Below are positions 1-50,606 of a DNA stretch of 64,000 bases, in pieces. This DNA comes from Thermoplasmata archaeon (GTDB taxonomy: Archaea; Thermoplasmatota; Thermoplasmata; Lutacidiplasmatales; UBA184). The position numbers and the translations under genes are program-made. Numbering within the stretch: position 1 is the first letter of the stretch; every line of letters starts with the position of its first letter. The notes under the pieces were generated by a model. That model did no database searches. It saw nothing but the letters and a program-made list of their open reading frames with translations, and was not told where the DNA came from. Location: the NCBI GenBank assembly GCA_021791335.1, contig JAJYWS010000061.1:22924-86923 (forward strand). The letters are read 5' to 3'.

Positions 1-436
1 GCCCGGCCGGGTCACCTTGTGGTCGCCGATCAGGAGGTGGCCGTGGACGATCCACTTGCGGGCCGCGATGGCGGTCGGGGCGAGCCCCTTGTGGAACGCG
101 ACGAAATCGAACCGGCGCTTGAGGAGATCCTCGGGGTTGAGGGCCAGCACATCGTCGAGGGTGGCCGTCGGGGCCTTGAAGAGCCCGAGGCGGGTCAGGC
201 GGCCCAGCAGCAGGTCGGTCTCCCGCTTGGCCTGCTCCTCGCCGGCCCGGAGGCGGGCCTGGAGGTCCCGGGCCTGGCGACGGAAACCCCGGAGGACCGA
301 CTGGGCCTTCCACAGCTCCCGCTTGTTCTTGAGGGCGTAGCGCTGGAGCAGCTTCCGCTCCTCGGCCATCCGGGTGGCCTCCCAGGGGTGTTTCGGGGTT
401 TCGTAGAGGCGCCGGAGAAAGCGGGGATCTCCCATA
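1..436 (-). CDS. rps4: 30S ribosomal protein uS4 (S4), 5' part; gene continues beyond window start
   Basis: Minus-strand translation from the ATG at 436..434 gives MGDPRFLRRLYETPKHPWEATRMAEERKLLQRYALKNKRELWKAQS.., the archaeal uS4 N-terminal signature. The frame is open to position 1, so it is absent from the complete-ORF track. It lies directly downstream of uS13, the conserved archaeal order. Confidence 0.8.
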
Positions 437-445
437 GGACTTGAA

Positions 446-1183: not shown

Positions 1184-1366
1184 GGGGTACAGGGCGCCGT
1201 AGCGATCACCCTCCCGGCCGGAGTCGGGGGTGAGGGAACGGGCGCGGCGCCCGAGATGGCCTTCCCTTTTAAGCGCTTCGGGAGGGGTGACCGCCGAGAG
1301 ACCGGGTCGGGGTCGCCCTTCCGATTCGTCGGCAGTGGAATAAGGCCCCGTAGGTAGCTCAGGTCG

Positions 1367-2095
1367 ATGCCGAACTCCGGTCGGGTCTCGGTGATCCTAC
1401 CGACCTACAACGAACGGGCCGGTATCGCCTACCTCTACCCCCGCCTCGCCGAGGCCCTCTCGGGCGTCCCCTCGGAGCTCTGGGTGATCGATGATCAGAG
1501 TCCGGACGGGACGGCCGAGGTGGCCCGTTCCCTGGAAGGGAGCCTGCCGGTCCATGTGGTGGAGCGGACGGGGGTCCGGGGCCTGGCGACCGCGGTCCTG
1601 GAGGGGTTCCGGCGGGCGCCCGGGGAGTACCTCGCGGTGATGGACGCCGATGGTAGTCACCCGGCCGCGGTGCTGCCGGCGCTGCTCCGGGCCGTTCAGG
1701 AGGGACCGGCCGAGATGGCGATCGCGACCCGGGAGGCCTGGAGCGGAGACCGCCCCGGCCTGGCCCTCAGCCGCCGGGTCATCTCCTCCGGTGGCCGTTG
1801 GCTGGCCCGGCCGCTGACCCGGGTGCGCGACCCGATGTCCGGCTACTTTGTCGTCCGCCGGAGCCTGCTCGACCGGGCCCCCCTCGACCCGATCGGCTAC
1901 AAGATCGGCCTGGAGATCCTCGTGCGGTGCCGGCCCGACCCCGTCGCCGAGATTCCGTACCGATTCCTCCCCCGGATCGCCGGGCAGAGCAAGCTCGACC
2001 GCGGCGAGATCGGGCGGTATGTGAGGCATCTCCTGAGGCTCTACCGGGCCCGGTCGGTCGGACGGGCCGACCGGCAGGCCCGCACCACCCGGTAG
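1367..2095 (+). CDS. GT2-family glycosyltransferase, dolichyl-phosphate mannose/glucose synthase-like
   Basis: VILPTYNERAGI...WVIDDQSPDGT...AVMDADGSH motifs typical of Dpm1/AglD-like GT2 enzymes. Confidence 0.8.
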   Translation: MPNSGRVSVILPTYNERAGIAYLYPRLAEALSGVPSELWVIDDQSPDGTAEVARSLEGSLPVHVVERTGVRGLATAVLEGFRRAPGEYLAVMDADGSHPAAVLPALLRAVQEGPAEMAIATREAWSGDRPGLALSRRVISSGGRWLARPLTRVRDPMSGYFVVRRSLLDRAPLDPIGYKIGLEILVRCRPDPVAEIPYRFLPRIAGQSKLDRGEIGRYVRHLLRLYRARSVGRADRQARTTR

Positions 2096-2697
2096 CCCGA
2101 GTGCCGGGCCACGACGTCGACCGTCCCGGGAAACTCCTCCGTGAGTTTGTGCTGGTAGTAGAGGATCCCCTGGCTCCCCTGCCCGACGACCCAAAGTCGG
2201 CCGGTCTCGGTCAGGAACCGGGGGGCGTCGCGGAGCATCGCCAGGATCTGGGGACGTCCGATCCGGTACGGTGGGTTCGTGGCGATCACATCGAACCGCT
2301 CCCCGGGGACCGCCTCGAACATCGATCCCGCCCGGACCTCGGCGTTGGTGAGCCGGTTCTGGGCGAGGTTCTCCCGGGCGAGCCGGACCGCCCGCCGGTT
2401 CACATCGACCATCACGACCCGGCCCTGCGGCGCCGCCTTCGCCGCCGCGACGCCGACCGCGCCCCAGCCGCAGCCCAGATCGAGCACCCGGTCGGTCGGC
2501 CCCACTTCGAGGCTCTGGATCAGCAGGTCGGTCCCCGGGTCGAGCGCCCGGACGGCGAAGACCCCCCGGTCGACCGTGAAGGTCAGGATCTCGCCTCGGT
2601 AGAGGAACCGAAGCTGTCCCCGTTCGGAGGGGGAGCGGGGGCGGGCGGAATAGTAGTGGTCGACCGGAAGCCCCTCACCGTCCGGCCCTTCGGTCAC
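2044..2697 (-). CDS. Class I SAM-dependent methyltransferase, RsmC/RsmD-like small-domain type
   Basis: [19 protein letters not shown]-binding motif and NPPY catalytic motif. GTG start at 2697 overlaps the dnaJ stop (GTGA). The N-terminal 180 aa of track ORF 2041..3240 is discarded as read-through overlapping dnaJ. Confidence 0.7.
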
Positions 2698-3836
2698 GGT
2701 CGGGCCCCGAAGAGGGTGCCCCGGCGGCCGGTCGGCTTGCGGGCGGCGGTGCCGAGCGCCTCGGCGATGAGCTCCTTCTGCCGGCCGTTCAGGGACGGGA
2801 GATCGACGTGGAGGAGGACCATGAGGTCCCCCCGGCGGCTCGAGCGGAGATGCGGGAACCCCTCTCCCCGGAGCCGCAGGCGGCTCTCCGGCTGGCTCCC
2901 GGGCGGCACATGGACGACCGCTTCGCCGGTGAGGGTGCGGACCTTGACCTCGCCGCCCAGGAGGGCGGTCGCGAGCGGGACGGTGACCTCGGTGAGGGCG
3001 GTCGTGCCGTCCCGGGTGATCCCGGGGACCGGATCGAGCAGGACCTGGACATAGAGGTCGCCGGGGGGGCCGCCCCGGCTCCCCTCGGCGCCCTGACCGC
3101 CGAGCCGCAGGACGGCGCCGTTCTCGATCCCCGGGGGGATCTGGACCTCGATGTGCCGGGTGCTCCGCACCCGGCCGGTGCCCTTGCAGGTCGGACACGC
3201 CTCGATCACGCGCCGGCCGGTACCGTGGCAGCGCGGACACTCCGTGATGGTGATCATCTGGCCGAAGCCGCTCGACTGGAGCCGGCGGACCTGCCCCTGG
3301 CCCCCGCAGTCCCGGCAGGTCTCGAGCGCGGTCCCGTTGCGGGCGCCGTTGCCCCGGCAGTCCGCGCAGGGGTCGATCCGGGGGATCTCGAGCGTCGGGC
3401 TCGCCCCGGAGACCGCGGCCGCCATCGGGAGCCGGACCGAGACCTCGATGTCGCCCCCGCGGGCCCGGGCGCCCGGTGGCCGCCGCCCGAAGAGCGTACC
3501 GCCGCCGCCGAAGAACTGCTGGAAGAAGGGATTCGATCCGAGGAGATCCTCCAGATCGCCGGCGTGGCTGAAGTTGTTCCAGGAGAACCCGCCCGGACCG
3601 AACTCCGAGTCGACGGCGGCGAACCCCTCGGCATCGTACCGCCGCCGCTTTTCGGGGTCGGCCAGGACCTCGTAGGCCTCGGAGAGCTCCTTGAACCGTT
3701 CCTCCGCCGCCTTCGGGTTGGCGGCGTTGAGATCCGGGTGGTGGAGACGGGCGAGCTTCCGGTAGGCGCTCTTGATCTCGTCGGGAGACGCCGTTCGGGG
3801 GACCCCGAGCACTTCGTAGTAGTCCCGTTTCGCCAT
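2694..3836 (-). CDS. dnaJ: Molecular chaperone DnaJ
   Basis: J-domain [12 protein letters not shown]...HHPD, a G/F-rich linker and four CxxCxGxG zinc-finger repeats. The start is the ATG at 3836 (internal Met of track ORF 2694..4043). Confidence 0.9.
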
Positions 3837-10556: not shown

Positions 10557-11834
10557 CTATTCGCGCTTCTTGACGTCGACGACGACGCCGGCCGCGACCG
10601 TCTGGCCCATGTCCCGGATCGCAAACCGTCCGAGCTGGGGGAACTCTTTGTACTTCTCAAGCACCAACGGCCGGCGCGGGGTGATCTTGACGACCGCCGC
10701 ATCGCCGGTCTTGAGCGTCTGGGGGTTCTCCTCCGCGACCTGGCCGGTCTTGGGGTCCAGCCGCTTCAGCAGCTCGGTGAACTCGCAGGCCACCTGGGCG
10801 GTATGGCAGTGGAAGACGGGGGTGTACCCGGCCGTGATGACGCTCGGGTGGTTGAGCACCTGGATGTTGGCGGTGAAGCTCTCGACCACGGTCGGCGGGT
10901 TGGAGACCGGGCCCGCGACATCGCCGCGCCGGATGTCGTTCTTGTCGATCCCGCGCACGTTGAACCCGACGTTGTCGCCGGGGCCGGCCTCGGTGACCTG
11001 CTCGTGATGCATCTCGATCGACTTGACTTCGCCCGACTTCCCGCTGGGCAGGAAGATGATCTTGTCGCCGATCTTCATCATCCCCGTCTCGACCCGCCCG
11101 ACCGGGACGGTCCCGATACCGGTGATGGTGTAGACATCCTGCACGGGCAGCCGCAGCGGCTTCGTGGTGGGCTTCTCGGGGACCTTGAGGTTGTCGAGCG
11201 CCTGGAGGAGGGTGGGGCCCTTGTACCAGGGCGTGTTGGGGCTCGCCTTGTTGATGTTGTCGTCCTTGAACGCCGAGATCGGGACGAAGACCACCTGCTC
11301 GGCGACCTTGAATCCGACGTTCTTGAGCAGCTTGGTCAGCTCCTCGACGACCTCCTTGAACTTCGCCTCGGAGTACTTGACCTCCTGGCGGTCCATCTTG
11401 TTGATCGCGCAGATGAGCTGGGTGACCCCGAGCGTCCGGGAGAGGAAGATGTGCTCCCGGGTCTGCTCCTGGACCCCATCGGCCGCCGAACAGACCAGGA
11501 CGGCCGCATCGGCCTGGCTGGTCCCCGTGATCATGTTCTTGACGAAGTCGCGGTGGCCGGGCGCGTCGATGATGGTGAAGTAGTACTTCTGGGTGTCAAA
11601 GCGCCGGTGGGCGATGTCGATCGTGACGCCGCGCTCGCGCTCCTCCTTGAGGTCATCCATGACCCAGGCGAACTCGAACGTCGCCTTGCCCTTCGCCTCG
11701 GCTTCCGCCCGGAACTTGTCGATCTCTTCCTGGCGGATGTATCCGGTGTCCAAAAGAAGGCGACCGACGGTCGTCGACTTGCCGTGATCCACGTGGCCGA
11801 TGAAGACGATGTTAAGGTGGGGCTTCTGTGCCAT
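10557..11834 (-). CDS. tuf: Translation elongation factor aEF-1 alpha
   Basis: [29 protein letters not shown] and NKMD GTPase motifs; ~425 aa. Confidence 0.95.
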
Positions 11835-11856
11835 GCTGCCGGCTCCGGGCGCGCCC

Positions 11857-11870
11857 AAAAGGTCCCCCTA
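11857..11870 (-). promoter_or_regulatory. Putative TATA box (TAAATA on minus strand) for the tuf-rps10 operon
   Basis: The only AT-rich hexamer in the GC-rich spacer, ~25-30 nt upstream of the tuf ATG at 11834. Confidence 0.4.
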
Positions 11871-12028
11871 TTTAGGCGTTGTCCAACCGGACCGCACCGG
11901 GGACGGGCGCCGCTCGGAGGCGGAAGCGGTCGGATGGGCCCCGGCGACCGGGGCCCCGGCCGTTAGCTGATAAACCCTCTCCCTATGGGGGCCCCCTCCG
12001 ACGGGCCGCCCCCGCCGGGATCGGATCG

Positions 12029-12529
12029 ATGACCGCAACTCCCCCTGTCAACCTGCCCCCCCGAAGCGTCGCCTCCAGCCGGGCCACGATGGACCGGCTC
12101 ATCGTGCCGTCGGACGTCAATTTCCACGGGAACGCGTTCGGGGGCAAGATCCTCGCCGATGTCGACCAGGTCGCCTACATCACCGCCTCGCGGCACGCCA
12201 AGACCACGTGCGTCACGGCGTCGTTCGATCGGGCCGACTTCGTCGCCCCGGTCCACGTCGGGGACCTGGTGCGGTTCGAGGCCCGGATCAGCTGCGTCGG
12301 GCGGAGCTCGATGGAGGTCTGGGTCCAGGTCGATGCCGAGCCCGCGGAAGGCGGGGCGGCCCGCCGGGTCCTCGAGGCGTACGTCACGATGGTCGCCTTG
12401 GATACCGACAACCGGCCGGTCGCGGTCCCGCCGCTGGCCTTGGAGACCGAGGAGGAGCGGCGTCGGTACGCCGAGGGGCTGGAACGGATGGCCGCGCGGC
12501 GCCGAACGGCGAAGGAGGGCCGGCGATGA
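12029..12529 (+). CDS. Acyl-CoA thioesterase (hotdog fold)
   Basis: PSDVNFHGNAFGGKILADVDQVAYI...MEVWVQVD matches YciA/Acot-type hotdog thioesterases. Start is the internal ATG at 12029. Confidence 0.7.
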   Translation: MTATPPVNLPPRSVASSRATMDRLIVPSDVNFHGNAFGGKILADVDQVAYITASRHAKTTCVTASFDRADFVAPVHVGDLVRFEARISCVGRSSMEVWVQVDAEPAEGGAARRVLEAYVTMVALDTDNRPVAVPPLALETEEERRRYAEGLERMAARRRTAKEGRR

Positions 12530-12975
12530 TCTGCGAGATGTGCGGGGCCGATATGGACCGGGGGATCCGGATCCGGCTCGAGCGCTCGGTCCTTTCGGTC
12601 TGCCCGAAGTGCGCGAAGTTCGGCCAGCCGGTGGACCCCCCTCCTCCGGCGCCCCTGCGTCCGGGCGTCGCATCGGCCCCGCTGGGTCGGGGCCGCCCGA
12701 GCCTGTCGGGCCGCCGGCTCGCCGAACGGGATGTCTTCAACGAGATGCCGGAGCTCGAGCTCGCGGGGGACTGGGCCCGTCGGATCCGTGCCGCCCGGGA
12801 GGCGCTGGGCTGGACCCCCGAGGATCTCGGTCGGAAGCTCAACGAGAAGAAGTCGGTCGTCCTGAAGCTCGAATCGGGCGGGTTCCGGCCGCCGGACGCC
12901 CTCGTCGGCAAGCTCGAGCGGCTGCTCAAGGTCAGGCTGCGCGACGTCAGCGTCGAGCCGGCCGACGGGCCCTAA
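12526..12975 (+). CDS. mbf1: Archaeal multiprotein-bridging factor 1 (Zn-ribbon + HTH_XRE)
   Basis: N-terminal MICEMCGA...CPKCAKFG zinc ribbon and a C-terminal HTH (ARRIRAAREALGWTPEDLGRKLNEKKSVVLKLESG). The ATG overlaps the thioesterase stop (ATGA). Confidence 0.75.
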   Translation: MICEMCGADMDRGIRIRLERSVLSVCPKCAKFGQPVDPPPPAPLRPGVASAPLGRGRPSLSGRRLAERDVFNEMPELELAGDWARRIRAAREALGWTPEDLGRKLNEKKSVVLKLESGGFRPPDALVGKLERLLKVRLRDVSVEPADGP

Positions 12976-13960
12976 GCTTCGGCGCCCAGGCGCGGGCCGG
13001 CGAACTGCGGGGCAGGCGGTCGGGGGCGAGCAGCAGTTCGAGGATCGCCTTTTCGGCGTGCAACCGGTTCTCCGCTTCGTCCCAGGCGGCCGACCGGCTC
13101 CCGTCGAGCACGTCGTCGGTGATCTCCTGGCCCCGGTGGGCGGGCAGGTCGTGGAGGACGAACGCCGACGGCTTGGCCCGGGCGAGCAGCTCGGCATTGA
13201 TCTGGAAGCCGCGGAACGCCTTCTCCCGCTTGGCGGTCTCCGCCTCGTCGCCCATCGACACCCACACGTCGGTGTAGAGGGCGTCCGCGTCGGTGGCGGC
13301 GATCGCCGGGTCGTCCGTGAAGGTCAGCTCGGCGCCGTGGAGCCGGCCGTACTCCCGGGCAACGGCGACGATTTCGGGCAGGGGCCGATAGCTCTCCGGG
13401 GTCGCGCAGACGAGATCGAGGCCGACCAGGGCGGCCCCGAGCATGAGCGAGTGCAGGACATTGTTGCCGTCCCCGATCCAGGCGAGTCGACGACCCTTGA
13501 ACGATCCCTTCCAGCGTTCGGAGAGGGTCAGGAGATCGGCGATGATCTGGGTCGGGTGCTCCCGGTCGTCGAGGGCGTTGATCACCGGGACGGTCGAACT
13601 TCCGGCGAGTTCCAGGACGCTGTCGTGACGGAAGGCCCGGTAGACGATCGCGTCGACGTACCGGGAGAGCACCCGCGCCGTGTCCCCGATCGTCTCCCCG
13701 CGGCCGAGCTGCATCTCCTTGGGAGAGTAGTAGATCGCATCGCCCCCGAGGTCGTGGATGCCGACCTCGAAGGAGGTCCGGGTCCGGGTCGACGGCTTTT
13801 CGAAGATGAGGGCGATGTTCCGGCCGCTCAGGCTCGGGCGCAGCCGGGCCCGGCGACGCTGCGCCTTGAGCCGGGCGGCGTGGTCGATGAGCCGTCCCAG
13901 ATCCGAAGCCACATCCTGGATCGAGAGAAAGTGCCGGGCCGTGACCGTCCGCGGAGCCAC
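12947..13960 (-). CDS. argF: Ornithine carbamoyltransferase
   Basis: STRTRTSFE, HPTQ, DVWVSMG and HDLP (HCLP-like) motifs. Confidence 0.85.
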   Translation of the reverse strand: MAPRTVTARHFLSIQDVASDLGRLIDHAARLKAQRRRARLRPSLSGRNIALIFEKPSTRTRTSFEVGIHDLGGDAIYYSPKEMQLGRGETIGDTARVLSRYVDAIVYRAFRHDSVLELAGSSTVPVINALDDREHPTQIIADLLTLSERWKGSFKGRRLAWIGDGNNVLHSLMLGAALVGLDLVCATPESYRPLPEIVAVAREYGRLHGAELTFTDDPAIAATDADALYTDVWVSMGDEAETAKREKAFRGFQINAELLARAKPSAFVLHDLPAHRGQEITDDVLDGSRSAAWDEAENRLHAEKAILELLLAPDRLPRSSPARAWAPKLRARRPARR

Positions 13961-16094: not shown

Positions 16095-16739
16095 GTGGGG
16101 GTCACCCCCCGGCGACCGGGATGGATCCGCCGGGTCTTCGGGGTCCCGACGAGCCGGTGGGCCGGCTGGTTCCTCGCCCGGTTCAACGGGCCGATGAACC
16201 GCCGCCTCGTCGCCCGGCTCCAGCTGGGGGGCGGCGAACGGGTCCTCGAGATCGGCCCGGGACCGGGGGTCGCCCTGGAGGCGATCGCCCGCCGGCTGCC
16301 GAACGGCCGCGTCACCGGACTGGATCCCTCGCCGGTGATGCGGTCGATGGCCGAGGCCCGGCTCCGCCGGAAATTCCCGCCCGAACGCTACCGGCTCGAA
16401 GCGGGGGAGGTGGGCGCGCTGCCCTTCCCGGACGCCTCATTCGATGCGATCTACTCGGCCAACAGCGTCCAGCTCTGGGCCCCGCTCGACGCGGCCCTTA
16501 GGGAGATCACCCGGGTCGCCGCCCCGGGCGCCCGGCTTGTGCTCGGCGCCCAGGAGGTGGCGATCCGGGGGGCCGGCCGCACCGTCCGCGAACTGTTCGA
16601 TCCTCTGGTCGGCGGGTTGTCCGGCCCGGCGTGGACGGTGGAGTCGGTGGGCCGCGGGGGGGTCGGTCGGTTCCACTACCGGTATGTGGAGGCCCGCCGC
16701 GCCGAGCGGGGGTCCGAGAGTGCCGCGGGCCGGGCTTGA
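16095..16739 (+). CDS. Class I SAM-dependent methyltransferase (Methyltransf_11-like)
   Basis: VLEIGPGPGVALEAIA SAM motif, DASFDAIYS and ARLVL. Start tentatively the GTG at 16095, just after the DUF35 stop. Confidence 0.6.
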   Translation: MGVTPRRPGWIRRVFGVPTSRWAGWFLARFNGPMNRRLVARLQLGGGERVLEIGPGPGVALEAIARRLPNGRVTGLDPSPVMRSMAEARLRRKFPPERYRLEAGEVGALPFPDASFDAIYSANSVQLWAPLDAALREITRVAAPGARLVLGAQEVAIRGAGRTVRELFDPLVGGLSGPAWTVESVGRGGVGRFHYRYVEARRAERGSESAAGRA

Positions 16740-16962
16740 ACCGGCGGCTTCAAGATCTTCAGTCTTGCACTCTCCCAAACTGAGTTACCGCGGCACAGGA
16801 TCGTCCTCCCCGACCGACGGAAGTATAAAGACGCTTTAGCCGGAGGGGCTCCCTGAACCGCCCCATGATCCGCCCACGAACGCCGGCGCGCGCGTTCGGT
16901 AGGCCCCCGGCCGCTCCGGCCTCCCCTGACGTTATCTACGGGTCCACGCCTCGGAAGGGGTC

Positions 16963-31603: not shown

Positions 31604-31676
31604 GCCGCTGTAGCTCAGCTGGCAGAGCAGCTGATTCGTAATCAGCAGGCCGAGGGTTCAAGTCCCTCCAGCGGCT
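31604..31676 (+). tRNA. tRNA-Thr (anticodon CGU)
   Basis: Cloverleaf read directly: acceptor GCCGCTG/CAGCGGC, D-arm GCTC..GAGC, anticodon stem GCTGA/TCAGC with loop TTCGTAA, T-arm GAGGG TTCAAGT CCCTC. Confidence 0.9.
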
Positions 31677-38353: not shown

Positions 38354-40168
38354 ATGTCCCCTCTGGAACTCCGAAGTTGGGCCGGCGGCCCGACGGCCAG
38401 CGGTAATAGGGAGAGTCGGCCTGCACGGACCATGCCAGCCACCGGTGGAAACGGGAGTCGTGGGAGTGAGGCGGCGGAGGGATTCCTGCGGGAGGCCGAG
38501 GCCCGGCTCCTCGATCTGTCGGTCGAGAGCCAGCGCGCCGAGTGGGTACACGCCACCTACCTGTCCCTGGACACCGCCGATCTGGCGGCTCGAGCCTTTG
38601 CCCGTCGGGTACGGGCGAGTGTCGAGATGGCCCGGAACTGGACTCGATTTGACTCCGCGGACCTGCCGGCCGACCTGCGCCGCAAGGGCCTCCTCCTGAG
38701 GCTCTCGCAGTCGCTGGTGGCGCCTTCCGGGCCGGGGGAGTCCGAAGAACTGGCGCATCGCGTGGCCGCGATGGAGGGGCGGTACGCCACCTTCCGGGTC
38801 GTCCTTCCCGGTCGGAAGGAGCCGACCGACCTCGAAGGGCTCTCCCGGATCCTGGCGGAGAGCGACGACCCCGCGCTGATGGAGGCGGCGTGGAACGGCT
38901 GGCACGAGGTCGGACGGCCGATGCGGGCCGACTTCCTCCGGTATGTGGACTTGGCCAACCGCGGGGCCCGGGAGCTCGGGTTCGCCGATACCGGGGAGAT
39001 GTGGCGGTCCCGCTACGATATGCCGCCCGACCAACTCACGGCCGAGGTCGAGCGGCTTTGGGAGCAGGTGGCCCCGCTCTACCGGGATCTCCACCGCTGG
39101 GTCCGGCAGCGGCTCATGGAGCGCTACCCCGAGCTCGTTTCGGACGGGGGCCCGATACCCGCCCACCTGCTCGGCAACATGTGGGCGCAGTCCTGGGAGT
39201 CGCTCAGCACCGGGATCACCCCGACCGGGATTTCGGGGGGGCCGGCGCTGACCGATGTCCTGCGGGCCCGCATCTCCGATCCCCGGGAGATGGTCCGCTA
39301 TGCGGAGCGGTTCTTCACGTCGATCGGCTTCGAACCGTTGCCCGCCAGCTTCTGGGAGCGCTCGATGTTTTCCCGTCCGAAAGACCGGGAGGTGGTCTGC
39401 CATGCCAGCGCCTGGGACCTGGACTTCGACCAGGATGTCCGCATCAAGATGTGCATCGAAACCACCGGGGAGGAGTTCCAGGTCATCCACCACGAACTCG
39501 GACACACCTACTATCAACTCGCCTGCCGACGGCAGCCGTTTCTCTTCCGGGACAGCGCCCACGACGGCTTCCATGAGGCGCTCGGGGATCTGATCGGGCT
39601 CAGCGTGACCCCGGCCTACCTCGCCCGGATCGGACTCGCCGGAGCCGATCCCGCCCCGGCCTCCCCCGTCGGGGGGCTGCTCCGGATCGCCCTCGACAAG
39701 GTACCGTTCCTTCCGTTCAGCGTGGCCGTCGATCGGTGGCGATGGGAGGTCTTCTCGGGCCGAGTCGGCCCCGACCAGCTCAACCGGAGATGGTGGGAGC
39801 TCCGCGAGGAGCTGCAGGGCATCGCCCCGCCCAGTCGCCGGGATCCCGACACCTTCGATGCGGGGGCGAAGTACCACATTCCGGCGAGCGTGCCGTACCT
39901 GCGCTACTTCCTCGCCTACATCCTCCAGTTCCAGATGCACCGCGCACTCGCCCGGGCCTCCGGGTGGGACGGGGCGCTCCACGAGTTCACGATCTACGGC
40001 AACCGCGAGGCCGGCGCCCGCCTCCGGACGATGATGGAGATGGGGCAGAGCCGTCCGTGGCCGGAGGCGCTGGAATCGGTCACCGGCGAACGCCGGATGG
40101 ATGCGAGCGGACTCCTCGAGTACTTCCGTCCGCTCCGCGACTGGCTGAACCGGGAGCAGCGCCGTTAG
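38354..40168 (+). CDS. Peptidase family M2 (angiotensin-converting-enzyme-like peptidyl-dipeptidase)
   Basis: VIHHELGHTYY (HEXXH) plus GFHEALGDLIGLSV closely match the ACE zinc-binding motifs HHEMGH...HEAIGD. The ~600-aa domain length is right. Start codon uncertain (ATG 38354 or 38432). Confidence 0.8.
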   Translation: MSPLELRSWAGGPTASGNRESRPARTMPATGGNGSRGSEAAEGFLREAEARLLDLSVESQRAEWVHATYLSLDTADLAARAFARRVRASVEMARNWTRFDSADLPADLRRKGLLLRLSQSLVAPSGPGESEELAHRVAAMEGRYATFRVVLPGRKEPTDLEGLSRILAESDDPALMEAAWNGWHEVGRPMRADFLRYVDLANRGARELGFADTGEMWRSRYDMPPDQLTAEVERLWEQVAPLYRDLHRWVRQRLMERYPELVSDGGPIPAHLLGNMWAQSWESLSTGITPTGISGGPALTDVLRARISDPREMVRYAERFFTSIGFEPLPASFWERSMFSRPKDREVVCHASAWDLDFDQDVRIKMCIETTGEEFQVIHHELGHTYYQLACRRQPFLFRDSAHDGFHEALGDLIGLSVTPAYLARIGLAGADPAPASPVGGLLRIALDKVPFLPFSVAVDRWRWEVFSGRVGPDQLNRRWWELREELQGIAPPSRRDPDTFDAGAKYHIPASVPYLRYFLAYILQFQMHRALARASGWDGALHEFTIYGNREAGARLRTMMEMGQSRPWPEALESVTGERRMDASGLLEYFRPLRDWLNREQRR

Positions 40169-40623
40169 CGCCCCACCGGGCCGGCGCGGGCGTCCGATCG
40201 GCCCGCCGCGTGGGTGGCCCCGGCCAGGATGAGGTCGAGCGCGACCAAGGCGGTCAGGAACCCGTACTGGACCGGCGCGAGGGAAGTGGAGAGAACGCCG
40301 GCCGCGAACAGGCTGCCGAGGCTGGCCATGCCGATGAGGACCCCCAAGGCGGCGGCCGCCCAGAGCGCCAACCGTGGCGCCGTGGCCCGGAGGGCCAAGG
40401 CCAGGACGAGCGAGACCAAGGCGAGCAGGAGCAGCAGGCCGGCCCCGACCACATGAATCCCGGCCACAACTCCTGAGGGGGTGAAGAGGCAGCCCGGGTA
40501 GGCGGTGCAGGCGGAGGCCGCGGGTCCTCCGGCGCCGACCACCCACCCGACGAGGACCGCCAGGACCGCGCTGACGATCGCGGTCGCCTCGAGCAGGCCG
40601 ATCCACCAACCCGGATGCCTCAC
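40165..40623 (-). CDS. Hypothetical membrane protein (4 TM)
   Basis: Four hydrophobic helices. Confidence 0.5.
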   Translation of the reverse strand: MRHPGWWIGLLEATAIVSAVLAVLVGWVVGAGGPAASACTAYPGCLFTPSGVVAGIHVVGAGLLLLLALVSLVLALALRATAPRLALWAAAALGVLIGMASLGSLFAAGVLSTSLAPVQYGFLTALVALDLILAGATHAAGRSDARAGPVGR

Positions 40624-40666: not shown

Positions 40667-41815
40667 TCAACTCTCGGCGAGGGCTTCCCGGTAGACTGAG
40701 ACTACCTCGGGGATCCGCCGGGCCCAGTCGAACGCTGCGGCCCGGGGCCGACCGGCCGACCCCATCCGCCGCCGGAGGGCCGGATCGTCCGCCAGCCGTT
40801 CGATCGCCTCGGCCAAGGCCCCGGGATCCCCGGGCGGGACCCAAAGGGCCGACCCGCTCTCGCCGACCAGCTCGGGCATCCCTCCGACCCGGCTCGCGAT
40901 GATCGGGAGGCCGCGAGCCATCCCCTCGAGCAGCACCAGGCCGAACGGCTCGAAGCGGGAGGGCACCACGAGAATGTCGGCGTTTCGATACTCGGCGTCG
41001 AGCTCCGTCTCGGAACGGCGCCCGGTGATGGTGAGGCGGACCGAGGGGGAAAGGCGGGAACAACGATCGTCGAGCTCCGCGCGCGGAACCCAGATCTCCC
41101 CCACGATCCGCCACTCCAGGTCGGTCCGGCGGGCCAGCCGGCCGGCCGCCTCCAGGAGCACGTCGATCCCCTTCTGATCGAAGTCGACGCGACCGACGAA
41201 GAGGATCCGGAGTCGGGGGGTGGGGGGCCGGTCACCGGGGGTCGCCGGGGGGCACCGGGAGAGATCGATTCCGCCCGGAATGACCCGGAGCCGGTCGGCG
41301 GGCACCCCGATCCGGACCAGGAATCGCCGCTCCATCTCGGTCTCGGCGATGACCCGTCGCGCCGGCGCGAGGGTGCCCCAACGGACCAGGGCATCGAACC
41401 CGGCCCGCCCCCAATGGGGCCGGCCCGGGTCGGAGTGGGGGGTGACGACGAGCGGGAGCCTCCGAAGGGAGGCGGCGAGCGCTCCGGCCCATGTCGGGAA
41501 CTGGGCGAACCCGTGGGCGTGGATCAGGGCCCCGGGCTCGGTCCCGAGCCGGCGCAGCATCCCCGGCGAGACAATCCCGAGGTCGTTGGGCAACGGGAGG
41601 GCGAAGTACGGCCGGTGGCGGAAGACCGGATACCGGGTCGGGGGCGGGAGCTCGGCCGGTGAGAACCGGGCCCAGGGTCGGGGCGTCCTGAGATCGGTCG
41701 TGACCACGACCGATTCGATCCCTTCGTCCGGCAGCCGCTCGGCGAGCGCCTGCACGTGCCGGTCCACTCCGCCGATCGCCGGGGGAAACCGTTGGGCAGC
41801 GAGCAGGACCCGCAT
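40667..41815 (-). CDS. GT4-family glycosyltransferase
   Basis: C-terminal EPFGLVLLEGMA (E-x7-E) motif; start at the internal ATG MRVLLAAQRFPP. Confidence 0.8.
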   Translation of the reverse strand: MRVLLAAQRFPPAIGGVDRHVQALAERLPDEGIESVVVTTDLRTPRPWARFSPAELPPPTRYPVFRHRPYFALPLPNDLGIVSPGMLRRLGTEPGALIHAHGFAQFPTWAGALAASLRRLPLVVTPHSDPGRPHWGRAGFDALVRWGTLAPARRVIAETEMERRFLVRIGVPADRLRVIPGGIDLSRCPPATPGDRPPTPRLRILFVGRVDFDQKGIDVLLEAAGRLARRTDLEWRIVGEIWVPRAELDDRCSRLSPSVRLTITGRRSETELDAEYRNADILVVPSRFEPFGLVLLEGMARGLPIIASRVGGMPELVGESGSALWVPPGDPGALAEAIERLADDPALRRRMGSAGRPRAAAFDWARRIPEVVSVYREALAES

Positions 41816-41819
41816 CGTG

Positions 41820-43196
41820 TCAGCTTCCCGGCGCCGGTCCACGACGGGCCGCCCCGTTCTCCTCCGCCCGGAGGGCCATCCCCCGACGTCCCCGCGGAGA
41901 GCGGGCGACCTCCCACGCCAGCCAAAGGAGGACCGCGGTGAAGATGAGGCCCAGAACGATCAGCCCCACATTCCTCAGCGGGCCGAGGACCGGACTCCCG
42001 TTGGCCGAGTCGGCCAGGGTCAGGGCCGCGGGGGTGAGGGGCCCGAGGAGCTGCAGGAGGAGGTCCTGATTCACCAGGAGGTAGACGGTCGCCACGCCCG
42101 TGACCCAGGCGAGGTGGCGGCGGCGCTCCGGATGCCAGAGGACACAGTCGAGGAGGAGGAAGACCAGCAGGTAGATCACGATCTGCTCGTACACATCCTG
42201 CCGGGTCAGCATGTAGGCGATGAGGATGAGCAGCATCGCCTGAACCGTCGCTTCGGCGTTACGGACGGAGAACCGGCGGGCGGCCCAGATACCCACCCCA
42301 AGGACGACCGGGATCCAGAGGTAGGAGAACGCGGTGTAGAAGACCGTCGGCTCGAGGTAGGGGCTGAGGTAGGGCGACTCGAGCAAGGACGCATAGGTCA
42401 TCCCTCCCGAATTGCCGTGAACCTGCGCGTTGACCAGCCCCTCGAACCCGGGGAGGCTCCAGTGGAAGGCCAGGAAGAAGGCGGCCGTTCCGAGAATCGG
42501 GATCGCGCACGCGACCAGGACCAGGACCACCCCCTTCCCTCGGTCCCGGACGAGGTGGTACGGCAGGGCGATCAGGGGAAGAAACTTGAGGAAGATCGAG
42601 GTCCCCAGAAGCGACCCCGAGACCCAGGCGGCCTCCGCGAGCAGGGCGGCGATCCAGAACGCCGTCACGAGGGAGTCAAACTGGCCCCACATCGCCGCGA
42701 TGATGATCGGGTAGGGGAAGAGCATCCAGAAGGCGAGAATGCCCCGGGCCCGATCCTCACGACCGGACTCCCGGAGTACGAAGCGGTAGAGCAGGTAGCC
42801 CAGGAGGACGTCCCCCCACACCTCGGGCTGCTTCAACAGGAAGTACGCGAGCCATCGGCTCGACCACGGAAGCGCGAGGTAGCCGTGGTAGATCCCGACC
42901 AGGATCATGGTCCACAGCGGCAGGAATCCGACCGACGGCAACGCCACCGTGAGATAGGCAAAGCTCAGATGGGGCGCCGGCAGAAAGACCTGGTACGGTG
43001 TGACCCCGGGGCCGACCCAGTAGGCATTGCGGATCCAGACCTCGAAGTCGTACTGCTGCCCGGTCCAGAAGGAGAGCACTTCCCGGAGCGCGAGGCCGAG
43101 GAGAAGCCAGGCCGCCGGGTTCAGGCGCCTCAGGAGGCGGTTCCAGGGCCGCCGGGCGGCGATCGACGCTCCGGCCGGGGGCACGGACGAATTCAC
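41820..43196 (-). CDS. Polytopic membrane protein, probable GT-C-type glycosyltransferase
   Basis: About 12+ TM helices. GTG start at 43196 overlaps the upstream GT2 stop (GTGA). The N-terminal 74 aa of the track ORF are discarded. Confidence 0.55.
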   Translation of the reverse strand: MNSSVPPAGASIAARRPWNRLLRRLNPAAWLLLGLALREVLSFWTGQQYDFEVWIRNAYWVGPGVTPYQVFLPAPHLSFAYLTVALPSVGFLPLWTMILVGIYHGYLALPWSSRWLAYFLLKQPEVWGDVLLGYLLYRFVLRESGREDRARGILAFWMLFPYPIIIAAMWGQFDSLVTAFWIAALLAEAAWVSGSLLGTSIFLKFLPLIALPYHLVRDRGKGVVLVLVACAIPILGTAAFFLAFHWSLPGFEGLVNAQVHGNSGGMTYASLLESPYLSPYLEPTVFYTAFSYLWIPVVLGVGIWAARRFSVRNAEATVQAMLLILIAYMLTRQDVYEQIVIYLLVFLLLDCVLWHPERRRHLAWVTGVATVYLLVNQDLLLQLLGPLTPAALTLADSANGSPVLGPLRNVGLIVLGLIFTAVLLWLAWEVARSPRGRRGMALRAEENGAARRGPAPGS

Positions 43197-43969
43197 GCCT
43201 CCGCTTCCCCCGCTGAGCTCGAAAGCGTGCGACGGTCCCGAACTCTCCACCGGCCCGGGGCCAGGTAGCCGCGCAGGAGCTTGAGATCGAAGACCGGGGT
43301 GTAGAGGAGGTTGCGGAGCGAGCGGCTGTTGGCGTGGATCAGCAGGGGCACGAGGAGCGAGAAGGCGAGTTCCCGGGGGCTGCCCCCGGCCGCCGCCCGG
43401 ATCTGGGCCCCCTGCCACTCCGGCCAGTCCCGACCACGGTACGGACTGCGGTGGACCATGGCGTCTGGGAGGTAGGCCACCTTGCGATGGTCCCGGGCCA
43501 ACGCTCGGCGAAGATAGTAGGTCTCGGAGCCCTGGGCGACCTCCGGCAGGGCCACGGTCCGGCCCCAGGCGACCGGAAGCAGGGTGAGCCCGAGCGGGAG
43601 ACCGTAGGCGAACGGATGGTGGCAGGCGTTGCCCACGACGGCGCCGACTTGGGGCTCGGAGAGCCGTCGATGGGCTCGGGCATAGAAGTCGGGGAGGACG
43701 AGCTCGACGTCGCTATCGAGGAAGAGCAGTGTCGGGGTATCGGCCAGTTCGAAGGCCAGCCGGGTCGCGCGTCCGATGCCCGTCTCTTCGCTCCGGAGCT
43801 CGGCGCCGAACGACTCGGCGATCGCCCGGGTCGAGTCGGTGCTGTTCCGGTCGATCACCCAGAGGTGGTGGATCGGGAGCCACTGTCGGGCCGCCCGGAG
43901 GCAGGCCTCGAGGGTGCGGCCCGAATTGAAGGTCCGGACGGCCACGTCCACCGGCGGGAGTTCGGTCAC
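43193..43969 (-). CDS. GT2-family glycosyltransferase
   Basis: Rossmann-like GT-A N-terminus with DSD/DxD motifs (WVIDRNSTDST..., LFLDSDVE). Confidence 0.7.
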   Translation of the reverse strand: MTELPPVDVAVRTFNSGRTLEACLRAARQWLPIHHLWVIDRNSTDSTRAIAESFGAELRSEETGIGRATRLAFELADTPTLLFLDSDVELVLPDFYARAHRRLSEPQVGAVVGNACHHPFAYGLPLGLTLLPVAWGRTVALPEVAQGSETYYLRRALARDHRKVAYLPDAMVHRSPYRGRDWPEWQGAQIRAAAGGSPRELAFSLLVPLLIHANSRSLRNLLYTPVFDLKLLRGYLAPGRWRVRDRRTLSSSAGEAEA

Positions 43970-44087: not shown

Positions 44088-44318
44088 GTGAAGCTCTATT
44101 CGGAACGGCTCTTCCTCAAGTGGCTCGTGAGCAACCATGGGATCTGCTTCGGCGTGGACCTGAAGCATCGATCCTACCTCCTGCTCGCCTCGAGCCGGGG
44201 CCTGATCTTTCAGCGCCGCCCCGTCGGGGACAAGGTGGTGGAAAACCTCGACTACGAAATCCCGGCGATCGTGGACGCCCTCCGGACCGAGTCGAGGCGC
44301 AGCCCGTCGGGCCGATGA
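44088..44318 (+). CDS. Hypothetical small protein translationally coupled to the downstream split-barrel/methyltransferase fusion
   Basis: 76 aa (VKLYSERLFLKWLVSNHGICFGVDLKHRSYLLLASSRGLIFQRRP...) with strong GC3 bias. The stop overlaps the downstream ATG (ATGA). A TATA-like TAGATAT lies ~30 nt upstream. Confidence 0.4.
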   Translation: MKLYSERLFLKWLVSNHGICFGVDLKHRSYLLLASSRGLIFQRRPVGDKVVENLDYEIPAIVDALRTESRRSPSGR

Positions 44319-45529
44319 GCCGTCCTTCCCCGGTCCCGGCGCGGGACTCGGATCCCGAGGTCGTGCTGCTGGCCACCCCCGGCGGGGTGGTTCCGCTCGC
44401 GTTCGTGGAGGAGGGACCGGTCCTCTACCTGGTCGCCACCGATCGGGCGGCGGGGTGGCCCACCGAGGTCTTGAGGGCCGGGCGGGCCGACTACCGGTGC
44501 CGCGGGGCGGCGGCATCGGCGATCCCCCGGCTCGTCACCGATGGCGGGGAGATCGCGGAGATCCTGGAGCGGTTCCGGGCCAAGTACGGAGAGCGGGCCG
44601 TGCAACGGTGGTTCGCCCGTCCGGGACGGGTGCTGGCCCTGACCCCGTCCAAGGACTCCCCTCCGGCCGATCCCGAGGGCCGGTACTACGGCTGGCTGGA
44701 GTCCGAGTTCGACCTGATCGCCTTCGACTACGATCGGCACATTCTCGGCAACCGCATGAACCGGCTGCTCCGGGACCGGTCGCTCGCCCAACTCCACCGG
44801 ATCTTCGAAGCCCGGTCCCCCATCCTGGAGATCGGTTGCGGGTCCGGGATGGAGACCCTCGAACTTCTCAAATCCGGTCACGAGGTCGTCGCGGTCGATA
44901 TCTCGGCGCGGATGCTCGAGGTGGTTCAGCGGAAGGCCCGAGAGGCCGGAGCCCAGGATCGGCTTCGGGTCCACCGGCTCCGCGCGCGCGACCTGGACCA
45001 ACTGGTTCCCGAATACGGATCGACGGCCTTCCAGGGAGGTTTTTCCACCTACGGGGCGCTCAACTGCGAGCCGGATCTGGCCCCGGTGGCCGCAGCTCTC
45101 GGTCGATTGCTCCCCGAAGGCGCTCCGTTCCTGGCCGGGGTCTACAACCGGTGGTGCGCCTTCGAGATCCTCGCGTATGCCCTGACCGGGCGGTTCGAGA
45201 GAGCCGCCGGACGCTGGCGGGATCCGGTTCGGGTCGGGTCGTCTCGGTTCTGCGTCGATGTCGTGGCGTTTTCGGCCCCGCAGATGCGAAGGCTCTTCGC
45301 GGAAGGGTTCCGGCTCGAGAGGACCGAGGGGGTTCCGGTGATGCTCCCGCCGTCCGATCTGGTGCGCTATGCCGAGATGTTCTCGACCCGGTTCGCTCGC
45401 CTGGAGCGGCTCGATCGCTGGGTCGGAACCCACGGGCCGGGCCGGTGGCTGGGGGATCATCTCCTGCTCACGTTCCGCCGCCGGGGCCCCCACGCCCCCG
45501 GGGGCGTGCCGGGAACCGCGGACGGATAA
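44315..45529 (+). CDS. Fusion protein: N-terminal split-barrel domain (DUF385/PNPOx-like) + class I SAM-dependent methyltransferase
   Basis: N-terminal VVLLATPGGVVPLAFVEEGPVLYLVAT...AEIL resembles deazaflavin-dependent nitroreductase/PNPOx-like barrels. C-terminal ILEIGCGSGMETLEL SAM motif. Confidence 0.7.
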   Translation: MSRPSPVPARDSDPEVVLLATPGGVVPLAFVEEGPVLYLVATDRAAGWPTEVLRAGRADYRCRGAAASAIPRLVTDGGEIAEILERFRAKYGERAVQRWFARPGRVLALTPSKDSPPADPEGRYYGWLESEFDLIAFDYDRHILGNRMNRLLRDRSLAQLHRIFEARSPILEIGCGSGMETLELLKSGHEVVAVDISARMLEVVQRKAREAGAQDRLRVHRLRARDLDQLVPEYGSTAFQGGFSTYGALNCEPDLAPVAAALGRLLPEGAPFLAGVYNRWCAFEILAYALTGRFERAAGRWRDPVRVGSSRFCVDVVAFSAPQMRRLFAEGFRLERTEGVPVMLPPSDLVRYAEMFSTRFARLERLDRWVGTHGPGRWLGDHLLLTFRRRGPHAPGGVPGTADG

Positions 45530-45570: not shown

Positions 45571-46500
45571 ATGAATGCTCGGATGGGACCCCCGTCATGG
45601 ATGGGCCGGCTCCGCCTCGCCGTGGAGCTCGGCCAGGGCTCCTCCGGCGGAGTTCCGCTGAGGGACCTCACGGAACTGTTGCCCGACGACGCTCCGCGAT
45701 CCGAGGCCGAGGTCGGGGAGTGGATCCTGCACAACCTGCCCTCGACGGTGATCGCGAACGGCCGGGCCTACCCGACGAGCGTTGTCCCCGGAAGCGAGCG
45801 CCCCGACGCCGAGGCCCGGCCGGAGGGGTATCTCCAGCGGGCCCGCGAATTCTTTTCCCCCTGGATGCAGGATCCCCGGTCGGAGGTTCGGTGCGCGGCC
45901 GTGACCGGATCGGTCGCCTACGGGTCGGCGGTGGTCTCCGACGATCTCGATCTGCTGGTCTGTACGGCCCGGGGCGCAGTCTGGGTATTTTTGGCCCGGG
46001 CGTTCCTCGCGGTCCGCCGACGACCCCGCGCCGGGGCATCCGGGGAACCCTCCCGATGGTGCTTCAATTTCGTCACCGATGACCGTACGCTGGTCGAGGA
46101 GTATCTCCGCGCCCGGGGGCTCCTGTACGCCCGGGAAGCCCTGATGGCCCGGGTGGTCCTGGGCGAGGATTTTTACCGGGGGCTCCTGGGAGCGTGCCCG
46201 TGGATGGCCTCGGAGGCCCCCCGACTCTATCGCCGATGGGCCCGGGACGGCTTCCCGCCCCAACCCCGGTCGTACCCGGCGTCGTGGCCGACCCGGCTCA
46301 CCAACCTCGCCCTGTATCTCCTGCTCGCCCCGTACCTTCAGTTGGTGGGGTTACGGCGGAACCATCGGCTGCGGCGGGAGGGCCGGCCCGCCCAGGAGTT
46401 CCGGACTATCACCCGTCTCGGGCGCCTCTTCTACCAGAGCCGCCGGTTCGATGACCTCGAGCGGCGGTACCGAGAGGTGTCGGTCACGGAGGGTCGGTGA
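45571..46500 (+). CDS. Nucleotidyltransferase-fold (Pol-beta superfamily) protein
   Basis: AAVTGSVAYGSAVVSDDLDLLV is the GS...DxD nucleotidyltransferase motif; a later Asp (FNFVTDD) is present. Confidence 0.6.
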   Translation: MNARMGPPSWMGRLRLAVELGQGSSGGVPLRDLTELLPDDAPRSEAEVGEWILHNLPSTVIANGRAYPTSVVPGSERPDAEARPEGYLQRAREFFSPWMQDPRSEVRCAAVTGSVAYGSAVVSDDLDLLVCTARGAVWVFLARAFLAVRRRPRAGASGEPSRWCFNFVTDDRTLVEEYLRARGLLYAREALMARVVLGEDFYRGLLGACPWMASEAPRLYRRWARDGFPPQPRSYPASWPTRLTNLALYLLLAPYLQLVGLRRNHRLRREGRPAQEFRTITRLGRLFYQSRRFDDLERRYREVSVTEGR

Positions 46501-47546
46501 CCGGGGCCGACTCCACCGGCCGGCCGCTCCGGCTCGTCGCTGGGATCGCGGCCTACCGTGAGGGGGAGCGGCTCCGCTGGTCGCTCGATTCGTTGCGCGA
46601 TCAGGAGCTTCCCGAGGGCATCCTCTGGAAGGAGTTCCGGATCGCCGTACCGGCCGACGACCCCGGCACCCTCGCCGTCGCCCGAAAATGTGCGGCCGCG
46701 GATCCAAGGGTGCGTCTCCTCGTCGAGCCCCAGCGTCGCGGCAAGTCGGCCGCTCTGGCCGAGATTCTGAAGTACGACGGGACGGACTATTTCATCCTCC
46801 TGAACGGCGACGCCCGGGCCCATCCGGGCGCGGTGGCCGAACTCGTTCTCCAGGCCGAGACCCTCCCCGGACCGGCCCTCGCGATCATGGGTCGTCCGGT
46901 GCCCCGCCCGACCCACCCCGGCACCCTGCTCGCGGCGACGCTGGCCCTGCTCTGGAAGTTCCATCATCTCTACCACCGGGAACTCCTGGGGACTGACGAG
47001 ATGCCCCACCTCTCCGACGAGCTTCTGTTGATCCGTTCGGAGGGACGGCCCACGCTGCCCCCGGGGATCGTGAACGACGGAGCGTATCTGGCGGCCGAAC
47101 TCCGCCGGCTCGGAGGGACGCTGGCCTACGCCCCCTCGGCCCAGGTCGATATCGTCGTCCCGGAGCGGTGGCGGGATCTCTGGATCCAGCGACGCCGCAT
47201 CCACGCGGGGCATCGGCAGATCGGGGCGATGTTCGGCCACGCTCCGGGCAGCTTTGGGGACCGGGCGATCCGCCATCCGGTCTACGGCGCCGGGCGGATC
47301 GCCCGGGAACTGCTCCGGGCCGAGCGCGGTGTGCCGGCGGGGATGGCCCTGATCCTCACCGAGATCGGCGCGAACCTGGCGTCCCGGCTGGACGGCCCCG
47401 ACCCGGGCGCGAAATTCGTACGGTGGCGGCGGATCCAAGACCCGGCCCTCGAGAGTGAAGCCGCCGTCGACCGGCCCATCGACCCCCGGCCCCGGAGGGG
47501 GGCCGTGAAGGCCTCACTCGCCCCCGGCCCCGCGCACAAACCTTAA
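46497..47546 (+). CDS. GT2-like glycosyltransferase
   Basis: GT-A-like N-terminus (AYREGERL..SLDSL..., LLNGDA). GTG overlaps the upstream stop (GTGA). Confidence 0.65.
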   Translation: MTGADSTGRPLRLVAGIAAYREGERLRWSLDSLRDQELPEGILWKEFRIAVPADDPGTLAVARKCAAADPRVRLLVEPQRRGKSAALAEILKYDGTDYFILLNGDARAHPGAVAELVLQAETLPGPALAIMGRPVPRPTHPGTLLAATLALLWKFHHLYHRELLGTDEMPHLSDELLLIRSEGRPTLPPGIVNDGAYLAAELRRLGGTLAYAPSAQVDIVVPERWRDLWIQRRRIHAGHRQIGAMFGHAPGSFGDRAIRHPVYGAGRIARELLRAERGVPAGMALILTEIGANLASRLDGPDPGAKFVRWRRIQDPALESEAAVDRPIDPRPRRGAVKASLAPGPAHKP

Positions 47547-50534: not shown

Positions 50535-50606
50535 TGGACACGGGGGGATTTGAACCCCCGACCTCTGCTTTGCGAAAGCAGCGATCTTCCGCTGATCTAC
50601 GTGCCC
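50535..50606 (-). tRNA. tRNA-Ala (anticodon CGC)
   Basis: Minus-strand cloverleaf: acceptor GGGCACG/CGTGTCC with the G3:U70 Ala identity pair, anticodon loop TTCGCAA, T-arm GGGGG TTCAAAT CCCCC, discriminator A. Confidence 0.9.

Follow-up and report, generated by a model that had tools for sequence, protein, structure and literature searches.

In a 64,000-nt stretch of contig JAJYWS010000061.1 from a Thermoplasmata archaeon (the window; 70% guanine plus cytosine, GC), two genes that overlap at their stop and start codons encode a small orphan protein of 76 aa (small76) and a 404-aa enzyme (MT404) that joins a predicted split barrel of the FDOR type to a class I S-adenosylmethionine (SAM)-dependent methyltransferase. 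Both this architecture and small76 itself are specific to the Thermoplasmata lineage. The interpretation we favor, with about an even chance of being correct, is a Thermoplasmata-specific module within a conserved, much-rearranged cluster for surface glycoconjugates, in which MT404 would methylate a glycan precursor and small76 would serve as an accessory. As a candidate partner for small76, the soluble family-2 glycosyltransferase of 258 aa encoded next door (GT2s) ranks no lower than MT404.

The gene pair and the small protein

Small76 (44088..44318, + strand, GTG start) and MT404 (44315..45529, +) are real coding genes, present both as open reading frames (ORFs) and as public gene calls. 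They share 4 bp at 44315..44318 (+), where ggccgATGAgcc supplies the ATG of MT404 and the TGA of small76; on the positions and the ATGA overlap, the sequence-only reading that preceded this work agrees with the DNA and with the public calls. Two records that carry an identical 404-aa protein (ENA ERZ27233557 k141_196189, and DAIFEJ010000058.1 of GCA_027377165.1, a Thermoplasmata metagenome-assembled genome) have both genes called as well, with the overlap of 4 bp and the flanking genes unchanged. The GC content of the small76 gene is 63.6%, against 70% in the MT404 gene and in the window as a whole.

The small gene is conserved in relatives, with 136 database homologues at 62–99% identity; those that are named all come from Thermoplasmata or 'Euryarchaeota' metagenome-assembled genomes, and none carries a Pfam domain. 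Across 34 aligned sequences, 37 of the 76 positions never vary, among them H17, C20, the run RRPVGDKVVENLDYEI and an HGxC motif, a level of conservation above that of the neighboring enzymes. Nucleotide entropy by codon position over 52 loci is 0.76/0.44/1.35, and inside the invariant RRPVGDKVVENLDYEIP motif it is 0.42/0.26/1.30, with third positions free to vary; this pattern indicates purifying selection on a protein, and thus a coding sequence rather than a chance reading frame. Searched with the family profile, a set of 1.84 billion representative proteins yielded only 15 clusters (50% identity), one of which, the 801-aa P0253, was discarded as a low-complexity tandem repeat; so short a list indicates that the family is confined to the Thermoplasmata lineage. 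One family member, WP_188680564.1, occurs in the cultured Thermogymnomonas acidicola.

Small76 is soluble (pI 9.9, no transmembrane [TM] segment) and has no sequence match in Pfam, NCBIfam or the PDB, where a search with the family profile gave nothing below E 0.2. Its AlphaFold2 (AF2) model, with a mean predicted local distance difference test score (pLDDT) of 81, consists of five antiparallel β-strands in a meander and then two helices, the first short and the second long, and Foldseek finds no significant neighbor for this model in the PDB (best E 0.28). The earlier suggestion of a loose resemblance to PqqD or RRE peptide-binding proteins is not borne out. None of 34 family members matches PqqD (PF05402) at E ≤ 10, NCBIfam gives no such match, the 50 listed Foldseek matches include no RRE, and the predicted meander with its C-terminal helix is not a winged helix. 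We likewise rejected the idea that small76 is a detached half of the MT404 barrel, as hhalign against that domain returned a probability of 0.1%.

A small protein encoded beside modifying enzymes could also be their substrate, methylated and/or glycosylated by its neighbors. Small76 is extremely conserved, has invariant K, R, D and E residues and is always found near such enzymes, as that explanation would have it; yet it contains no N-glycosylation sequon, signal peptide or TM segment, and it is predicted to be a folded β-protein rather than a leader-core peptide. We know of no precedent for such a substrate and consider this role very improbable.

Proximity without a fixed gene order

The relationship between the two genes is best seen across species. 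A scan for MT404 in one genome per GTDB species yielded 72 loci, all in Thermoplasmata and at 38–81% identity, which were mapped by tblastn with 22 called reference proteins; single-linkage clustering of ORFs was dropped, as long spurious ORFs in DNA of 70% GC merged families. Throughout this set the genes stay together, though their order is heavily shuffled. Of the 50 loci that have both genes, some place them side by side and co-directional, with small76 immediately upstream of MT404 in 15 and immediately downstream in 10 (spacers of 52–109 nt). The two are adjacent but convergent in 4 and separated by other genes in the remaining 21. Across the set as a whole, small76 can also be kilobases from MT404 or absent.

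Translational coupling of small76 to MT404 is not the rule. Of the 15 upstream-adjacent loci, about 7, spanning 40–86% MT404 identity, show an ATGA or GTGA overlap, and the others have gaps of 3–80 nt. The sequence-only reading had taken tight coupling in the window as the mark of a stoichiometric partner of MT404; the recurrence of the overlap speaks for this, while the placement of small76 elsewhere in 35 of the 50 loci, and an association with GT2s that is at least as close, speak against it. Proximity kept through many rearrangements argues that the genes are linked in function and do not simply retain an ancestral order, and with arrangements so shuffled, the overlap seen here is one of several forms of a three-way association. 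The lesson is a general one: a start/stop overlap in one genome is insufficient alone to name the partner of a small protein.

The third party to this association, GT2s (43193..43969, −), is oriented away from small76, with 118 bp between the two. It scores 45.2 bits with Pfam Glycos_transf_2, carries a DSD motif in which D85-S86-D87 are invariant, has no TM segment and gave no significant match in a PDB sequence search. Assignments of GT2s as AglJ, as an arsenosugar or mftF-like glycosyltransferase or as GpgS were not used, since scores of ~18–34 bits against cut-offs of 182–325 reflect the generic N-terminal GT-A region.

Neighborhoods were counted in 39 full loci, defined at species level and extending 5 kb or more to either side. 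MT404 is accompanied by hyp299, a nucleotidyltransferase (NTase)-like protein, in 31, by a second family-2 glycosyltransferase (GT2_349) in 28, by small76 in 26, by GT2s in 21 and by a second methyltransferase in 18. GT2s is the most faithful companion gene of small76: both are present in 21 loci, small76 alone in 6, GT2s alone in 0 and neither in 12 (Fisher p = 5e-6, uncorrected for phylogeny, with species that are not independent).

Small76 may therefore be primarily a subunit of GT2s, as in a two-component glycosyltransferase (e.g., a polyprenyl-phosphate-hexose synthase with a soluble partner), the overlap with MT404 being an accident of local gene order. GT2s never occurs without small76 in the full loci (21 vs 0), and the immediate neighbor of small76 is GT2s in 32 of the 50 loci, compared with 31 for MT404. 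In the deep-branching L064 and L066, GT2_276 and small76 are co-directional and abut or overlap, and in L058–L060 they nearly do so. Loci anchored on small76, which comprised three look-ups and 32 metagenome contigs, include four (L079 and L087–L089) with GT2s and small76 and no MT404. The opposite combination also occurs, however: 6 full loci, as well as L003, L084 and L099, have small76 beside MT404 and no GT2s, and the start/stop overlap with MT404 recurs in the ~7 loci noted above, across that same range of identity. We regard a primary role with GT2s as possible but on balance doubtful; it partly overlaps the glycan-methylation reading, and the two are not exclusive.

Thermogymnomonas acidicola, which is cultured and wall-less, carries the trio in the order MT389 / GT2_259 / small68, making these questions testable. 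In this species (L112, BMNY01000001.1; region 1–3601) the trio lies within ~2.5–6 kb of genes for sulfite reductase, ATP sulfurylase, PAPS reductase and a ComA (phosphosulfolactate synthase) homologue. These sulfur genes may be linked to the sulfosugar of the Thermoplasma N-glycan, or their position may be coincidence.

The methyltransferase domain of MT404

MT404 is a class I SAM methyltransferase, an ordinary enzyme class. The domain covers residues ~120–392 (44672..45490, +) by Pfam, alignment, AF2 and Foldseek, and residues ~130–232 pass five Pfam methyltransferase models (bits against cut-off: Methyltransf_25, 45.8/27; _11, 37/21.2; _12, 34.7/30; _31, 28.4/27; _23, 27.4/27). Motif I reads LEIGCGSGMET, with G174, G176 and G178 invariant in the family alignment, and the acidic residue at the end of β2 is the invariant D195 in AVDIS. 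The AF2 model (mean pLDDT 87.5, predicted template modeling score 0.85) shows the seven β-strands of the class I fold and a helical lid, the methyltransferase strands lying at 170, 191, 217, 241, 271, 332 and 382. A template modeling score this high for a two-domain protein suggests that the barrel is packed against the catalytic domain in a fixed arrangement.

The family also has invariant motifs of its own, YGALNCE, YNRWC, SRFCVD, LPPSDL and GDH. Among the cysteines, C175, C281 and C313 are invariant and C251 nearly so, and H142, H189 and H382 are invariant histidines; a metal or thiol site is possible from these residues around the predicted active-site region and from the HGxC of small76. 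The 120 homologues listed are all from Thermoplasmata and nearly all full length, which upholds the earlier view of MT404 as a fusion of split barrel and methyltransferase.

Among solved structures, those closest to MT404 are TM1389, CmoM, MitM, RebM/AtmM and prenyl-diphosphate C-methyltransferases, a set that includes sugar O-methyltransferases (RebM and AtmM); Foldseek gives 2avn at E 9.5e-15 (target TM-score 0.83) and CmoM 8joz at E 1.6e-14. MT404 approaches no NCBIfam equivalog cut-off, so that its substrate is not readable from homology, and two other kinds of substrate need to be weighed against the glycan precursor that we favor.

The first is a quinone or isoprenoid lipid. MT404 would then resemble UbiE/MenG, its barrel would bind quinone as Ddn-type barrels do (Ddn-type FDORs reduce menaquinone), and its glycosyltransferase neighbors would be unrelated. 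Pfam PF01209 (Ubie_methyltran) reports 21.6 bits against a cut-off of 20.1, TIGR01934 reaches E 6.5e-8, the top Foldseek match is annotated as 'ubiquinone/menaquinone methyltransferase-related', and GPP/FPP C-methyltransferases also appear; in L003, the pair stands beside a CrtC-lipocalin/polyprenyl-synthase fusion and a heme operon. The PF01209 match, however, covers only profile positions 13–99 of 233, the SAM-binding third, and MT404 falls far below the UbiE/MenG cut-offs (32.1 vs 158 bits for TIGR01934 and 28.9 vs 216 bits for NF001244). A polyprenyl synthase is a neighbor in 1 of the 39 full loci, compared with 28–31 for GT2_349 and hyp299, and the cluster has no men or ubi genes. A quinone substrate thus appears unlikely.

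The second is RNA, with MT404 as a CmoM-like modification enzyme and small76 as a small activator in the style of Trm112. By sequence, no solved relative is closer than CmoM (E 8.7e-11), which also ranks second by fold. The Trm112-partnered archaeal methyltransferase Hvo_0019 (6f5z) appears among the structural neighbors, and a DEAD-box helicase gene follows the cluster in the window. Yet MT404 scores 28.2 bits against the 366 required for the CmoM equivalog NF008264, and the PDB alignment spans only residues 132–234. A Trm112 identity for small76 was rejected, with no Trm112p match in Pfam and no Trm112 chain among the Foldseek matches, and the helicase is a neighbor in only 2 of the 39 loci, where glycosylation genes dominate. 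We would give this explanation only a slim chance.

The N-terminal barrel

Residues ~12–118 of MT404 (44348..44668, +) appear from profiles and the AF2 model to form a split barrel of the FDOR/DUF385/DUF2255 type. The predicted elements (β16–21, β24–33, β36–40, α48–55, β58–62, β65–73, α77–91, α93–100 and β106–111) follow the order βββ-α-ββ-αα-β, which in this model fits a split β-barrel. Pfam gives no match for residues 1–125 of the window protein, PF04075 included (E ≤ 1 for the protein and E ≤ 10 for the domain). Among 36 family members scanned, sub-threshold matches are to Pyridox_ox_2 in 20, PNPOx_N in 12, DUF2255 in 7 and DUF385 (F420H2_quin_red) in 4, with a best DUF385 E of 0.0087; all of these families belong to the split-barrel clan. 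Foldseek with the full MT404 model returned only methyltransferases and no barrel matches.

A profile of the domain finds the Nim-type barrel 2fg9 in the PDB (E 0.033) and, in a 5.8-billion-protein database, a stand-alone protein of 129 aa, P0257 (E 4.4e-8). Aligned by hhalign, the domain and P0257 give 97.4% and E 1.5e-11 over 79 columns. P0257 in turn exceeds the Pfam cut-offs for DUF2255 (44.2 vs 29.8 bits) and PF04075 (32.1 vs 22 bits) and matches the Ddn structure 3r5r at E 0.0018. On the strength of this link, the member matches and the order of AF2 elements, the domain can be placed by profile comparison in the split-barrel superfamily (PNPOx/Pyridox_ox_2/DUF385/DUF2255), the firm connection running through the single bridging protein P0257. 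Profile searches therefore do not contradict an N-terminal split barrel, and the label 'DUF385/PNPOx-like' given earlier holds at superfamily level. It does not hold for DUF385 specifically, with no PF04075 match in the window protein and matches in 4 of 36 members against 20 and 12 for the leading families.

Binding of a flavin or deazaflavin, which the sequence-only reading had associated with such barrels, is less certain. In Ddn, F420 is contacted by R54, T56, R60, Y65, K79, W88, N91 and Y133 (PMC3267046). These contacts can be carried over to MT404 by chaining the N-domain/P0257 and P0257/Ddn alignments, a remote alignment in which W88 of Ddn falls on the invariant W37 and P63 on the invariant P16. 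In the same chained alignment the hairpin with R54, T56 and R60 (F420 tail) is shortened, Y65 becomes G/A, K79 becomes E/D flanked by R31, R33 and R36, and N91 becomes E. With several contacts unconserved in so remote an alignment, the evidence leans only tentatively against a canonical F420 site in the barrel. Neither a redox partner nor any F420 gene was seen near MT404.

The surrounding glycosylation cluster

The pair had been described as lying between glycosyltransferase genes, and this is so: the minus strand upstream carries GT4, GT87 and GT2 genes, and downstream come an NTase-like gene and another GT2 gene. Nearest on the downstream side is hyp299 (45601..46500, +; 299 aa), whose stop codon overlaps the start of GT2_349 by 4 bp. 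Searches of Pfam, NCBIfam and the PDB gave no match for hyp299, but it carries an invariant GS..A...DDxD pattern (G103, S104, A106, D114, D115 and D117) like that of Pol-β nucleotidyltransferases, and it is the most constant neighbor of MT404. GT2_349 follows (46497..47546, +; Pfam Glycos_transf_2, 50.4 bits). Upstream of GT2s are a GT87-like GT-C membrane glycosyltransferase of 458 aa with ~7 TM segments (41820..43196, −; Pfam GT87, 25.3 bits against a cut-off of 25), a GT4 glycosyltransferase of 382 aa (40667..41815, −; precomputed Pfam on the public gene call) that recurs in some loci, and a 152-aa protein with four TM segments by hydropathy scan (40165..40623, −) and no Pfam or NCBIfam match.

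The glycosylation setting recurs across species and is therefore not an accident of this contig. The recurrent cluster contains two soluble GT2 enzymes with DxD motifs, GT4, hyp299, a second methyltransferase (MT284/MT316), a GT-C protein of either GT87-like or DUF2079 type, small four-TM proteins, a signal-anchored acidic protein and a helix-turn-helix regulator. MT404, GT2s, small76, hyp299 and GT2_349 have no TM segments and the GT-C proteins have 7–8, a distribution that fits steps on the cytoplasmic face followed by transfer on the outer face, the usual layout of lipid-linked glycan assembly.

Several other features of the neighborhood may be recorded. Small four-TM proteins recur beside glycosyltransferases, as with hyp170 (L065, 1317–1829); a flippase-like role for them is only a guess. 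Just upstream of the cluster in the window is a 578-aa protein of the Peptidase_M2 (angiotensin-converting-enzyme) family (38432–40168, +), unexpected in an archaeon. In L003, the gene immediately downstream of the pair (11301–13634) encodes a 777-aa fusion of CrtC-type lipocalin domains and a polyprenyl synthetase, and a heme biosynthesis operon comes after it. The window also holds tRNA genes for Phe-GAA (16720–16794, −), Thr-CGT (31604–31676, +) and Ala-CGC (50535–50606, −), and beyond these three an Rfam scan of the window found no family at gathering score. A promoter and terminator scan was set aside, as its bacterial patterns are uninformative for an archaeon.

Proposed function

We propose that MT404 acts as a cytoplasmic SAM-dependent methyltransferase on a sugar of a lipid-linked glycan or lipoglycan precursor. 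Soluble GT-A enzymes (GT2s, GT2_349 and GT4) would assemble this precursor at the cytoplasmic face, methylation would take place on that same side, and GT-C enzymes (GT87 or DUF2079) would complete the precursor on the outer face. The barrel, packed on the catalytic domain, would most likely serve in binding of ligand or substrate or in oligomerization rather than as a redox center. Small76 could serve GT2s, MT404 or both as a soluble accessory subunit, whether as adaptor, activator or stabilizer.

Archaeal precedent exists for the chemistry. Excerpts of PMC11407970 describe a methylated glucuronic acid in the N-glycan of Haloferax volcanii, and methylation confined to the lipid-linked stage for glycans of Halobacterium salinarum. 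For Thermoplasmatales, an excerpt of PMC12448462 describes a glucose/mannose tetraether lipoglycan, and for T. acidophilum the excerpts of both sources give heptose and sulfofucose in the N-glycan and glucose and mannose in the lipoglycan (PMC11407970, PMC12448462).

Several points weigh against this proposal. The same excerpts of PMC11407970 and PMC12448462 name no methylated sugar in Thermoplasma glycans, an absence that would also fit transient methylation. The best solved relatives of MT404 are a tRNA carboxyl-methyltransferase (CmoM) and TM1389, which is annotated without a function. In about 12 of the 39 full loci neither small76 nor GT2s lies within 10 kb of MT404, which shows that MT404 does not need them in cis, and L003 has the small76–MT404 pair with the polyprenyl synthase fusion and heme genes and no glycosyltransferase in range. 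For the small protein, the alignment is shallow (effective number of sequences, Neff, 1.6), and its other four AF2 models have pLDDT values of 58–68.

A bolder version of the proposal can be envisioned, to which we would lend little credence at present. Small76, GT2s and MT404 would form one cytoplasmic complex that makes and methylates a sugar linked to dolichol- or polyprenyl-phosphate; the FDOR-type barrel would have been re-purposed from binding a deazaflavin to gripping the phospho-lipid carrier, and small76 would be an obligate adaptor with a new fold.

Among the Thermoplasmata are acidophiles that have no cell wall and are believed to depend for survival on lipoglycan and heavily glycosylated surface proteins. 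A literature search found no paper on the assembly of these Thermoplasmata lipoglycans or surface glycans, and the cluster offers a concrete candidate pathway, spanning the lineage, for such glycoconjugates. It brings together three uncharacterized parts: the orphan, ultra-conserved small76, MT404 with what appears to be a borrowed FDOR-type barrel, and the NTase-like hyp299. Literature searches returned nothing on the MT404 architecture or on small76, and one directed at a DUF385–methyltransferase fusion matched only an unrelated DUF3850 paper. We see here a well-defined, testable and uncharacterized module rather than a surprising mechanism.

Comparison with known systems

Agl N-glycosylation clusters of the Haloferax volcanii AglP type likewise bring together a soluble GT2, a SAM methyltransferase and membrane transferases (PMC11407970, in excerpt). 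The division between cytoplasmic and outer-face steps is apparently alike in the two. They differ in that no oligosaccharyltransferase (AglB) was seen among the mapped neighbors of the Thermoplasmata cluster, no search having been aimed at one. For AglP we know of neither a split barrel nor a small partner, and, to our knowledge, no enzyme has been assigned to the methylation of lipid-linked glycans in Halobacterium salinarum.

Trm112–methyltransferase pairs offer the same idea of a small protein (~60–130 aa) that is encoded with a class I methyltransferase and activates it, and the archaeal example 6f5z is a structural neighbor of the catalytic domain of MT404. Small76 shows no likeness to Trm112 in sequence or fold, and its gene is often not adjacent to that of MT404.

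The two halves of MT404 can be compared with separate enzymes. With FDOR-A/DUF385 (Ddn) and DUF2255 proteins, the N-terminal domain shares the order of elements, a VP..F motif, an invariant Trp after β3 and FRAKYG....(W/Y)Y; unlike in Ddn, the β1–β2 hairpin appears shortened, the columns of K79 and N91 are acidic, and the domain is fused to a methyltransferase. With TM1389, CmoM (SmtA) and RebM, the catalytic domain shares the seven-strand Rossmann-like fold, the helical N-terminal lid, the cap insertion, the GxGxG motif I and the acid after β2, at Foldseek E ~1e-14. MT404 differs from these enzymes in its own invariant motifs and in the N-terminal split barrel, which is found in none of them.

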